This document shows, piece after piece, positions 268 to 36,974 of a DNA stretch of 64,000 bases. The stretch comes from Eledone cirrhosa (Eukaryota). Below the pieces are notes generated by a model. That model saw only the letters and a list, made by a program, of their open reading frames with translations. It had not been told where the DNA came from and made no database searches. Where the stretch lies: positions 339,450,001-339,514,000 of the forward strand of contig OZ024743.1 of the NCBI GenBank assembly GCA_964016885.1. The letters are read 5' to 3'. Positions within the stretch are counted from its first letter, which is position 1; the number at the start of each line of letters is the position of its first letter. The position numbers and the translations under genes are program-made.

Positions 268-307
268 CCGAGAACAATTGTTTCACCTTCGCGGATCTTC
301 AGCTCGG
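268..307 (-). ncRNA. Minimal type I hammerhead ribozyme, minus-strand copy
   Basis: The reverse complement reads CCGAG-CUGAAGA-UCCGCGAAGGU-GAAA-CAAUUG-UU-CUCGG, identical to 395-434. Confidence 0.75.
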
Positions 308-394
308 GATGTGTATGGTTATAGGAACAAGAAGGACAACCATACGATGCGCGTTCGTACGGTTGTCCTTCCTGTTCCTATAAACATACACATC

Positions 395-434
395 CCGAGC
401 TGAAGATCCGCGAAGGTGAAACAATTGTTCTCGG
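395..434 (+). ncRNA. Minimal type I hammerhead ribozyme, plus-strand copy
   Basis: Stem I CCGAG/CUCGG, core CUGAAGA (400-406), short stem II CC/GG with a U.U base, GAAA (418-421), palindromic stem III ACAAUUGU, GUU triplet with predicted cleavage after 429. Confidence 0.75.
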
Positions 435-546
435 TATGGTGAACTAACTGTTGTGTAACCACTTCTACCCAACTCGTCCCTTGGACTGAGTGCTCTGCCA
501 CTACGGATATTACCTTCCAGTGTTCCACCACTATATATATATATAT

Positions 547-32870: not shown

Positions 32871-35386
32871 TTTTCAATGTTTGTATACATACATGACCTC
32901 CTTTCCAACGCAAGAGACATACAGATACATATGTATATATTGATGTACAGTGGGGTGACATATATTATATTATTTCTGAATGGCAATTTAAATTCAAAAA
33001 TTAAAACTAAAATACAACATCAATGCAAATTTAAAATACAATCGGCAGTTAACGTAGATAATGCTAGAGGATAGTTTGTTAGTCAGTTGTAGTAGATATT
33101 GTATGCATTAGTTACACGTGGGGCATGCGCGTGTGTCTTATTTATATATAATTATTGTGCGGCAGGGTGTTATATGTAATACAAGCACTTTAAACGAGTA
33201 ATCAAGAATATTATGGAGGTTGTAGTGGTAAGGTATTTTTTGTATATGATAAAGAAGCATGTGTGCAGAGAAATAGTATAAATGAGAAGCAAAATAATGT
33301 TATGGTTTTTGTATACACCACCATTTTCACATTCAGGAAACGTAATATATAGTTTATATGTCCTTCACATAATTAACGATGATTCCGTATTGGATGTTTG
33401 ATGTATTAAGTTAAATTATTATAGCTTGTTGCGGCTCAGTGTTCTTTCATCCAATTTTATAGAGCAGGTTGTTTCTGTTGCGAGAATTTACATCGTTTTA
33501 TTATCCGGAAGTATGTGTGTGATTAAGGGGAGTTAATGCGTGAGGGGAGGTAACTAGCTGATTTCTATAACTAAATTTATTATTCCAACATACATTAAAA
33601 GGTGTCTCAATTGAGTCCCTTATATATACGGTTATATTTTAAACATTTGACATGTATATGAAGAAATATAAGGCAATAAATGAAGAAAACAGAAAATAAA
33701 TAAATAATATAATAAAATAATTAATATAATTTGTATAATTTGAAAATAAATAAATAAATAGAGAATAAAGAATAAAGAATAAAGAATAAATGAAAAATTG
33801 GTGAAAAAGTAATGAAAGTAATGAAAATGAATATGGAGAATTGAGAAATAATGTAGGATAAAGTGTGTGTGTGTGCTATAACCAATCTCAAGGTCAGAAT
33901 ATGTTGGATAGATTGGTATGAGACAAGATGTTAAGATGAGATATTCAAACTAAATGTGTTTGTGTTATAATCAATCTCAACTTAAAAATAAATATAAGGT
34001 GATACAGTGAAGAGGGCAGAAAACAAATAACAAATTAATAAAGAGAAATCAAGATTTAAGATTGGAACTTGAAAATCAGAAATCTAGTAAATTAAAAGTG
34101 TTTGTGTTATAGATGTTGGCCAAATTATTATGGCTGTGTCCGATTCTATCTCGAGGGTCTCGTTCAGGCATAGTTTGCATATGCAAGATCCCCCTTTATC
34201 GGTTGGTACTTTCCTGATTATATACCAGGCCAGAGAGTATGGGGTCCTGTCCAGCTTAAGCTTCCAGATCAGGTCGGAGAGAGCTGTGCTTTTCCTTTTG
34301 GCCTCCTTCTTGAATGAATTGCGATGGTTGTACCAGCGGTACTTAAAGCTCGTTGATGTGGCTCCTATGTAGAGGTGTTCGGAGTTGGGGGTTTTAACTC
34401 TATAACCGTACACTAGGTTCTTCTTGAGGCATTCATTACCAAGGGGGCATGATTCGGGGTTTCTGCAGTTGCAGAGGGTGGTCGGCCTCTGCGTGCCTAG
34501 ATTAGGGTTCCCGTTATGTGTTACATGCTGGTCTTCCCCCAGACTCGGTGGGGGGGGGGGGGTCCTCGGGTCTGTTTGGGTTTCTTGGGTGGGCTCTGGG
34601 TCCCCCCTTCCCTCCTTTCACATGGTTCTGCTGAGTGTTTGTATTGCCATCTTCTGGTTGTGTGTGGTTTTTAAGCCTACTTCTGTTGATGCTAGCTATG
34701 TGTTGGGCCAAATTTCTCGTGGTGGAATACGAAAGCTTCACAGTGTGTCTGTTGAAGATCCTGTGGTATCTGTGGTCCCTCGGGAAGCATTTGTCAAGTG
34801 CTCCAAAGAATAATCGGGCCAAGCTTTTCTTTAGGGCCGCTGAGTAGAGTGGGTTGTACCACGTGATTTGTCGGTGTCTCCTCCTATATGTGTAGGTCGG
34901 GGGGTTCGTGATTTGTTGGAGATTTGTTGGGTTGCTGGTGGTTTCCGCACTGTTGCTTCCCCTTTGGGCTCTATGCTTTTTGTTATCTTCGCGGCCCGAA
35001 TTTGTGGGGTGGTCGTTGTCCGCCCCGGGAGATCCATCGTAGGGTGGTCGCCCGTTTCCTCCCCTCTCCCACGTGTCCTTCGGTTGGGGTCGTCCGTCCT
35101 GGGGTGGTTAGCGTCACGCCTGAGACTGCTACTCATATTGTGCTCCATCTCGTGGTCAAGCGCACTAGTCCCCACCGCCCGTGTGGTGGTGTCGGGTACA
35201 TGATGCCTATTTGATTCTGCTCTGCCTGTATTGTTAGGGTTCGCCCTCCCCCCTCGGGCAACGCGGGTGTGGGTGTCTGTTGGGCTATCCACCTCCCGGC
35301 TTTTCGGACTATATGTTATATTTTGTCCATGTGCCGCCTTCTTTAGAGCTGCGTTGTAATATTCCGCGTGGTTATTGAATATTTCC

Positions 35387-36718
35387 TTACTTGCGGACAG
35401 GATCTCCTGCCTTGGTTATGGATCTAGGGTGGTTTGATTTGGCGTTAACATATACGAGTTTCTCGTTGGGCTTGTGGTAGGGGTAGTATTGCTCGGTGTT
35501 CAGGTTTAGGGTGGTGTCTAGGAAGTTAACTACCTTCCTATTTGGGTCTATTTCTATGCTGAGCCCTTGGTTCTTAAAGAAATGGCGAATACGCCTCCTC
35601 ATACCCTCCAACATATTGGTGTTGTGGTCATATACTGTGAATAGAGCATCGTCACGATATAATCCGCCGCCCAGGCAGGGGATTTCATCTTTTATCTGGT
35701 TCAGCAGGTAGAGCCCAACCAGGTCAGTTACCTGCGCTGAGTCGCTGGAGCCCATCGTGATGTCAACGTTATTTGGCCAATCACTCCTGGTCCAAAGGTC
35801 TCCATCGAAGCGGATTAAGGTCTTTCTTGCGGCGTGGATGATGCTCACCTCCTCTCGGGTTAGGTCCGTATTGGACATCGCTAAAAATAGGGCCTTATTA
35901 AGTACTATGGGTGAGATTGAGGAGTAGTAGCTTGCGATGTCCAGTTGTATAAAGCTGGTCCTACTTATCTCATGCAGTATTTTGAACCATTCTATTACTT
36001 CTCTCGTGCATGACCATTGCTGTAATTTGGTTTTCTTCCGAAGCTTGGGCAAAATCCTATCCAGTATTCTTTTACTGACGATCCCTAGGTCAGATCTGGA
36101 GGGGGCTATTAGTCTGACAGGGAGGTCGGACTCAAAGTTTGGCTTGTGGTCTTTAAGGGTAATCCGCGGCTCCCTTCGTTGGTATGGGGCCGTCCTGTCC
36201 TCTATGCCGATTCTGGATATAATCCTGTAAGCTGTGGCATTGATCTCATCCAGGGTAAATCCAGGTGTTTTTTTGTAGCACTTCCTCAGTTCCCTGAGGA
36301 TTAGCTTATTGTACAGTTCAGTGTTCATGTTGTAGAGGTTGTTTGTTTTGTCAGCATGGACAAGTATTCCAGTTGTCCCTTTAAGTACTGTAATCCGGTT
36401 TCTCAGGTGTCTGAGGTACTCCTGACTTCTGGTTGGTTTTCCGGAGAATTTGAGGTTGGATATGATGTTAATCATCTCGTTTTCAAACTCCTCCATTAGT
36501 CTGTTGTGGGGGGGGGGGGGGGGATTCCTCCTTGATCGAAAAAGGTACTCCATGTTTTGTGTGTTGGTAATTTTCTGCGTTCCTCTTTCGAAGTGGAACG
36601 CCTTCCATCTCATCCTAAAGATGAGGGAGTCTGTGCTCTTGATGAGATCACTGGTGTAATCTCGTTTATCAGGTAGGGGGATGGCCTTCAGTGACGCTAA
36701 GGTTGCCAGTTTATCCAT
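35387..36718 (-). CDS. Penelope-like reverse transcriptase (open through the thumb, then frameshifted)
   Basis: 443-aa ORF with the PLE RT motifs listed above. Confidence 0.85.
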   Translation of the reverse strand: MDKLATLASLKAIPLPDKRDYTSDLIKSTDSLIFRMRWKAFHFERGTQKITNTQNMEYLFRSRRNPPPPPHNRLMEEFENEMINIISNLKFSGKPTRSQEYLRHLRNRITVLKGTTGILVHADKTNNLYNMNTELYNKLILRELRKCYKKTPGFTLDEINATAYRIISRIGIEDRTAPYQRREPRITLKDHKPNFESDLPVRLIAPSRSDLGIVSKRILDRILPKLRKKTKLQQWSCTREVIEWFKILHEISRTSFIQLDIASYYSSISPIVLNKALFLAMSNTDLTREEVSIIHAARKTLIRFDGDLWTRSDWPNNVDITMGSSDSAQVTDLVGLYLLNQIKDEIPCLGGGLYRDDALFTVYDHNTNMLEGMRRRIRHFFKNQGLSIEIDPNRKVVNFLDTTLNLNTEQYYPYHKPNEKLVYVNAKSNHPRSITKAGDPVRK

Positions 36719-36918
36719 AGTGACTTAGGTCCGCTACTGTTTGGAGCGCTCAACCCGTGTGGGAGCTAGATAGATTTTGAGTTTATGTTGGTTGTATACC
36801 AACACCTCAGTATGCAGGCTGGGGCACTCGACGAAGTGCGCAGGTTGATTTGGTTACTCCGGAGTAGTGTAAAATAAAGTTAAATAAAAGTCAAATGATT
36901 AAAATTAGCTTCGTTTAT

Positions 36919-36974
36919 TACTGCTTTATATATTTCAGTGACAGCCATCTTTGGCAATGACCTCTTCAGGCAGT
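36919..36974 (-). ncRNA. Hammerhead motif in the Penelope pLTR, cleavage triplet apparently mutated
   Basis: The reverse complement reads ACUGC-CUGAAGA-GGU..GCCA AAGA UGGC..ACU-GAAA-UAUAUAAA-GCAGU-AAUAAA. Confidence 0.65.

Follow-up and report, generated by a model that had tools for sequence, protein, structure and literature searches.

Hammerhead-type motifs in the Eledone cirrhosa genome and their probable origin in coding Penelope-like elements of the Hydra clade

A 64,000-nt stretch of the 3.0-Gb genome assembly of Eledone cirrhosa (GenBank GCA_964016885.1, contig OZ024743.1, forward-strand positions 339,450,001 to 339,514,000; hereafter the window) carries six motifs that resemble hammerhead ribozymes (HHRs) in its first 37 kb, a mosaic of long interspersed nuclear elements (LINEs), Ty3/gypsy-type pieces, (TA)n runs and a Penelope-like open reading frame (ORF). 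We are highly confident that these motifs are hammerhead-type sequences in the terminal repeats (pseudo-long terminal repeats, pLTRs) of five protein-coding families of Penelope-like elements (PLEs) of the Hydra clade, and that five of the six lie in ORF-less copies, likely left by reverse transcription that stopped early. A sequence-only reading of the window had seen in them solo pLTRs or retrozyme-like non-autonomous elements; however, all five families join a reverse transcriptase (RT) or GIY-YIG endonuclease ORF elsewhere in the genome, and each motif can be placed at the normal end of a coding element that has been truncated, least firmly in family B. The six motifs are thus ordinary products of a described clade: the families are new, and the interest lies in the hammerhead load of the genome and in core variants fixed in individual families.

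Coding relatives of the window motifs

The genome was searched with each motif, the best 40 candidates were scored and the flanks were read at 29–30 loci each; the first look returned, in query order, 1,669 (family A), 234, 444, 2,707 and 862 candidates. The families are designated A (motifs 1 and 2), B (motif 3), C (motif 4), D (motif 5) and E (motif 6). All six motifs are present at the coordinates and on the strands first reported for them (Table 1). Motifs 1 and 2, which had been taken as dispersed copies with differing stems, together make up a single inverted repeat with arms of 113 nt (235–347 and 355–467, 96%), so that the window holds five insertions and not six; the limits of these (235–530, 3,477–3,955, 7,866–8,700, 32,621–33,637 and 33,651–37,208) were obtained by mapping long family copies back.

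Complete HHR-ORF-HHR units were found for three families: C (locus L155, motifs 3,256 nt apart), D (L150, 4,258 nt; L162, 4,354 nt) and E (L159, L160 and L161, motifs about 4,135 nt apart). Family A has an upstream ORF: RT and GIY-YIG lie immediately before the motif in L019, L021 and L024, and in inverted orientation in L014 and L015. Its direct arm in the window, itself without an ORF, matches the 3' end of L021, an RT/GIY-YIG copy, at 97.5%. The link of the older family B, with 78–94% among copies, is a junction of pLTR and RT, where the tail passes into the RT start without a microsatellite between them, identically in L202, L203 and L205. The 3' untranslated regions (UTRs) of C and D are about 1.0 and 1.5 kb long, and for this reason the window copies of these families do not reach their ORFs. 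Within the window only motif 6 touches an ORF, in agreement with the sequence-only reading; the ORF of this family E copy is frameshifted, has a deletion of about 260 nt at its endonuclease end and is followed by a 3' UTR cut off where the family D copy begins. More generally, copies of one family lie nested in the (TA)n ends of others, D starting exactly where the 3' UTR of E stops (33637–33651).

The associated RTs had been ascribed to Neptune or Penelope elements. They show DKT and a CxCx5C linker in place of DKG, the CCHH endonuclease motif (its absence judged by eye) and the Neptune CX2-5CxxC linker; DKT and CxCx5C rule out both a Neptune and a Penelope/Poseidon assignment. By motifs, architecture and (TA)n insertion, the sequences instead place these RTs in the Hydra clade, which is defined by such ORF motifs together with insertion into (TA)n (PMC8557442; this source, like PMC4209133, PMC7229834, PMC11167929, PMC9901934, PMC6155905 and 10.64898/2026.07.22.740005 below, is cited for the parts available to us). 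DKT is present in B, C, D and E, preceded by RWK in E and RWR in C, the N-terminus of A not having been recovered; the CxCx5C linker, with CxxC and CxH around conserved E and N residues, was seen in A, C, D and E. The order of RT followed by a C-terminal GIY-YIG domain is seen in L155, L158, L150, L162, L160 and L021, and was not seen in family B. Insertion into (TA)n, partial tandems that form the pLTRs, an inverted 5'-truncated arm and a one-sided tail were all found, and among the named matches listed for family C is a Hydra vulgaris protein (41%, E-value 4e-105).

These features are shared with published Hydra elements, among them Hydra-1_Obim: RWK, DKT, CxCx5C, CxxC/CxH and (TA)n insertion, partial tandems with inverted 5'-truncated arms and tails, and a type I hammerhead at the 3' end, in which U17 and a U.U pair at the foot of stem II are frequent (PMC8557442). 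File S2 of that study (Craig 2021) has 26 Hydra hammerhead rows: all 26 read CTGA, helix III is close to palindromic in most, two pyrimidines face each other at the foot of stem II in 15, and position 17 is U in 10. Since these rows agree with the architecture noticed in the window from the letters alone, that architecture is the published one of the Hydra clade. The families described here differ in having larger units (3.3–4.4 kb with 3' UTRs of up to 1.5 kb, against generally <3 kb), tails of about 25–105 nt in A, C and D and longer ones in B (against 30–40), the cores CAGA (C) and CCGA (D) where the published rows have CTGA, and a copy number far higher than the "small number of families" reported (PMC8557442).

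The ends of the copies suggest how ORF-less stubs arise. Their 5' ends vary, whereas their 3' ends fall mainly at two places, one short and one long, and are followed by (TA)n; past the predicted cut, the two modes lie at 35 and 100 nt in A, 50 and 215 in B, 25 and 50 in C, and 40 and 145 in D. In family A the 3' ends are fixed at (TA)n and the 5' extents are graded from 3 to >1,000 nt, and the arms of the 235–530 insertion, ending about 38 and 100 nt past the cut, match the two modes of the family. Paired copies are nearly always back to back. From published work on PLEs, the endonuclease of the element would nick (TA)n; reverse transcription would then start at one of two internal sites just 3' of the hammerhead and usually fall off early, so that almost every insertion, however short, would carry one hammerhead, with an inverted second arm adding another. 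Priming just 3' of the hammerhead, together with early termination, would explain why hammerheads outnumber ORFs. A precedent is the Poseidon element PAc of Anolis, in which two internal RT start sites define the tail and explain two fixed 3' ends, and which shares the AT-rich target and a hammerhead at the pLTR-ORF junction (PMC11167929). PAc belongs to a different clade and its ORF begins inside the hammerhead, whereas here it begins about 200–400 nt after it; for Hydra elements the two-start-site mechanism is thus put forward by analogy.

Table 1. Hammerhead-bearing insertions, associated features and other repeats, with window positions unless a locus or contig is named
Feature	Position	Strand	Remarks
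Family A, inverted short arm with motif 1 (268–307)	235..347	-	ends about 38 nt past predicted cut, at (TA)n
Family A, direct arm with motif 2 (395–434)	347..530	+	longer tail; ends about 100 nt past predicted cut, (TA)n
Family B, opposed arm	3477..3716	-	long tail without hammerhead core; 82% to family B tail
Family B, arm with motif 3 (3807–3913)	3708..3955	+	79-nt stem II region; ends at (TA)n
Family C, 840-nt 5'-truncated 3' UTR with motif 4 (8626–8676)	7866..8700	+	A4 at 8632; 96% to full unit L155
Family D, 5'-truncated 3' UTR of about 1.0 kb with motif 5 (32822–32870)	32621..33637	-	91% to full unit L150
Family E element	33651..37208	-	5' pLTR 36870–37208 with damaged motif 6 (36919–36974); RT/GIY-YIG pieces 35387–36724, 34831–35415, 34514–35107 and 34084–34617; 90–95% to L160
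Arrays of the 420-nt unit	C777:10,678–13,274; C5:63,516,189–63,518,383; L273:8700–9500		6+ units in C777; 5+ units in C5
LINE frame	662–3535	-	957 aa, endonuclease-RT
Second LINE	4419–7427	+	broken
Two Ty3/gypsy-type LTR retrotransposon bodies	17166–20514; 28438–32110	-	broken; protease, RT, RNase H and integrase-like pieces
GT-rich 21-nt minisatellite	23343–26415		147 copies, giving long low-complexity open frames
11-nt satellite	37207–64000		about 2,430 copies, strong strand skew; adjoins the family E 5' pLTR
Different RT with YVDD motif	L150:758–1858	-	beside the family D unit; unlike the Hydra RTs

Motif architecture, chance and density in the genome

The type I order attributed to the motifs from sequence holds, and pairing in three helices around the core fits motifs 1–4 and the usual family E copy. 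It is likewise borne out that four motifs have opposed pyrimidines at the foot of stem II (U.U in motifs 1, 2 and 4, C.U in motif 5) and that an AATAAA or ATTAAA lies shortly 3' of four (motifs 3, 4, 5 and 6). The description of stem III as mostly palindromic stands in part: ACAATTGT is present in motifs 1, 2 and 5, but motif 4 has an ordinary 3-bp hairpin. Against the core consensus C3 U4 G5 A6 N7 G8 A9 / G12 A13 A14 A15.1 / U16.1 H17, motifs 1, 2 and 3 conform; motif 4 (CAGAAGA, A at position 4) and motif 5 (CCGAAGA, C at position 4) depart from it in a way common to their whole families. Motif 6 departs at U16.1, a change specific to the window copy (1 of 44 family copies), and also has changes in stem II. 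Stem I is just 3 bp in family D, and in motif 5 this already weak stem is altered, AACT replacing the usual AGC in 1 of 19 family copies.

The motifs could in principle be chance matches in AT-rich repetitive DNA. We used a descriptor that requires the type I order, tolerates mismatched pyrimidines in the basal pair of stem II and accepts the cores C(U/C/A)GANGA or UUGANAA; this relaxed form was shaped on the window families, which favours the chance reading. In positions 1–37,200 it gave 4 matches, against a mean of 0.025 and a maximum of 1 in 40 block-wise dinucleotide shuffles, and the strict core gave 3 matches against 0. Motifs 5 and 6 (2 of the 6) fail the descriptor because the window copies carry the changes described above, which nearly all members of their families lack. 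A random sample of 100 stretches of 10 kb from 22 large contigs (999,200 called bases) contained 53 strict and 73 relaxed matches, where three shuffles of the same DNA gave 0, 0 and 0, and 2, 1 and 3, respectively. This excess refutes the chance reading; the fixed position of the motif near the 3' end of PLE units and the agreement of its architecture with published Hydra-clade hammerheads also speak against it, and we regard a chance origin as extremely improbable.

The random sample also supports the density proposed for the window, about one motif per 6 kb: when decayed homologues are included, it holds 140 homologous sites, one per 7.1 kb, which fall into 27 sequence clusters, 31 of the sites belonging to families A–E. 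Extrapolated to the whole genome, descriptor hits would number about 2x10^5 and sites about 4x10^5, figures derived from large contigs with a descriptor shaped on these families. Of the 73 hits, 5 were dropped because their flanks were too short; 64 of the remaining 68 have a (TA)n run no more than 300 nt downstream, as compared with 25% of random positions. AATAAA or ATTAAA occurs within 40 nt of 30 of the 73, against 6.4%. Same-family pairs within 5 kb (n=31) comprise 25 divergent, 1 convergent and 5 direct. Most copies are ORF-less stubs. Published counts are about 2,000 plus 1,300 in Schistosoma, 4,000 in the coelacanth and 9,000 in Xenopus (PMC4209133), and >6,000 in Acropora and 126,247 in the axolotl (PMC7229834). 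The metazoan minimal hammerheads attributed to truncated PLEs are likewise thousands of dispersed single motifs of high sequence diversity, with opposite-strand pairs 100–700 bp apart, palindromic helices III and U3-A8 families; their range of about 2,000–9,000 per genome and the 2x10^5 extrapolated here come from different descriptors and are not strictly comparable (PMC4209133). A literature search on octopus and hammerhead found no survey, and the words "hammerhead" and "ribozyme" are absent from the main text of a 2026 octopus repeat annotation (PMC13282606).

Several results weigh against the hammerhead reading of the motifs or against their origin in coding PLEs. As to the hammerhead reading, an Rfam scan of the window at E<=1 returned 41 matches, mostly microRNA models on simple repeats, and 0 to a hammerhead; and when the five window motifs were folded singly, their stability did not exceed that of their shuffles (z +0.30 to -0.80), results that would also suit a chance origin. 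An intact family E copy, folded in the same way, reaches z -2.49. On the protein side, Pfam called RVT_1 on 0 of the 4 PLE RT pieces scanned, and the GIY-YIG match of the family E element in the window (PF01541, E 1.6e-4) falls just under its cut-off, at 22.3 against 22.6 bits. As to linkage, the ORF start was found in no copy of family A examined; the link of family B consists of the three 5' junctions, and an endonuclease end adjoining the pLTR was found in none of its copies; and in the random sample 78 of the 140 sites could be assigned neither to ORF-linked clusters nor to tandem units in the DNA examined.

Retrozymes and short non-coding units

The linkage data bear on a second alternative, that the ORF-less motifs are retrozymes or solo pLTRs which replicate as their own short RNAs by means of PLE enzymes. 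Those 78 sites, and the lack of an ORF beside five of the six window motifs, are what this alternative would lead one to expect, and such elements do exist in the genome. A 420-nt non-coding hammerhead unit is repeated head to tail in arrays that have inverted 5' arms and end in (TA)n, and accounts for 11 sites of the random sample (its ends and lack of an ORF were read from L265, L271, L273, L308, L318, L321 and L147 and from match coordinates); a self-repeating unit of about 498 nt was also found; and family C itself forms rare direct dimers of 286–288 nt (3 of 100 site records, for example L088). The 420-nt family fits the metazoan non-LTR retrozymes, which share the type I hammerhead and a proposed origin from, and mobilisation by, PLEs (PMC7229834; 10.64898/2026.07.22.740005). 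The window motifs, by contrast, belong to families that encode an RT and an endonuclease, and do not form short units repeated head to tail. The 5' ends of A, C, D and E are variable and run into ORFs, no short head-to-tail non-coding units were found for these four, and the 420-nt family has no BLAST match in the window. Repetition of a copy's own upstream sequence was seen in 0 of 51 records of family D, compared with 8 of 13 of the 420-nt family (records repeat some places). Family B, which stood outside the tandem test, showed only opposed pairs apart from one partial; a direct-repeat search of the window was swamped by the 21-nt minisatellite. A retrozyme origin of the six window motifs is rejected on the evidence of their flanks and largely refuted for A, C, D and E as families, and taken as a whole we consider this alternative very unlikely.

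Across the genome the linkage is mixed: in the DNA examined, 50 of the 140 sites belong to clusters with at least one ORF link (44 of them to clusters with at least two) and 12 to self-repeating units. The suggestion of a non-autonomous population is therefore upheld in that tandem non-coding families exist, but none of them is represented among the six window motifs. Three other large clusters (23, 18 and 13 sites) showed neither an ORF link nor a tandem unit in the DNA examined. The most abundant, clusters 3 and 4 (23 and 18 sites; for example L225:7104 and L238:8481), have short, graded 5' ends. A family with a U3-A8 core (TTGAAAA) has 13 sample sites (among them L240:3185 and 9300, and L314:4344), and no ORF link was found for it.

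Core variants and ribozyme function

Under the preferred origin in coding PLEs, the hammerhead of source elements would cut a tandem transcript, probably weakly and with the help of protein, and most genomic stubs, motifs 5 and 6 included, are likely dead. Read-through of the 235–530 insertion would trap the sense hammerhead with its own complement in a 113-bp hairpin, which makes cleavage there unlikely. A search of sequencing runs with family A listed no RNA run.

The core variants raise the question of whether cleavage matters at all. In family C, A4 is present in 19,868 of 20,082 exact 24-mer matches; the first 100 listed of the 214 with another base comprise 40 G, 31 C and 29 T, a pattern that reads as random decay and not as a canonical subfamily. 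A second, unrelated A4 family has A4 in 98 of the first 100 matches listed of 226 exact 20-mers; at one locus (L268, minus strand, near 6330) it has an 8-bp stem I and a 5-bp stem III and repeats at about 498 nt. In family D, 96 of the first 100 matches listed, of 457, read C at position 4. Among 63 copies of family C, variation per position was too low to test for selection on the fold. U4C and the U10.1.U11.1 mismatch are known tolerated variants, and U4C supports viroid infectivity (PMC3088659). No natural A4 core was found in a literature search, which includes the available part of PMC6155905, although figures and some supplements (Cervera 2014, the Terminon paper) could hold one.

A4 is predicted to weaken cutting in family C, of approximately 20,000 copies. 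In a deep mutational scan, activity was low when one base of the CUGA turn was changed (PMC9901934). The pLTR hammerhead folds may no longer cut, and be kept as structural or protein-binding elements or as passengers, so that families with A4 or C4 would spread no less well than canonical ones; this concerns function only, is compatible with the origin proposed above, and seems to us a serious possibility that nevertheless falls short of even chances. The fixation of A4 in C and of C4 with a 3-bp stem I in D speaks for it, as do the competing hairpin into which the family C motif folds alone and the anole PLE, whose hammerhead mutants still insert, unimpaired in vitro (PMC11167929). Against it, 27 clusters whose stems are unrelated have retained the three helices and the rest of the core, A4 recurs in the second, tandem-looking family, and the C4 and U.U variants are those tolerated elsewhere. 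A bolder proposal, which we regard as tentative and rather unlikely, is that CAGAAGA would be a working natural core that became fixed twice, once in the coding Hydra-clade family of about 20,000 copies and once, independently, in a tandem family that resembles retrozymes and is not related to it. On the same proposal, the hammerhead load of this genome (about 2–4x10^5, most of it invisible to standard core descriptors and Rfam) may be larger than any yet recorded.

At about one motif per 7 kb, the load would be greater than the highest count that we found in print, in the available text on the axolotl (126,247), in a far smaller genome. Canonical (A, B and E), C4 (D) and A4 (C) families have all been amplified in the genome of E. 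cirrhosa and so provide matched natural constructs that bear on whether PLEs need hammerhead cleavage at all. Either outcome for family C would be informative: if A4 is dead, the family would be a natural experiment in which a PLE has amplified massively without self-cleavage.

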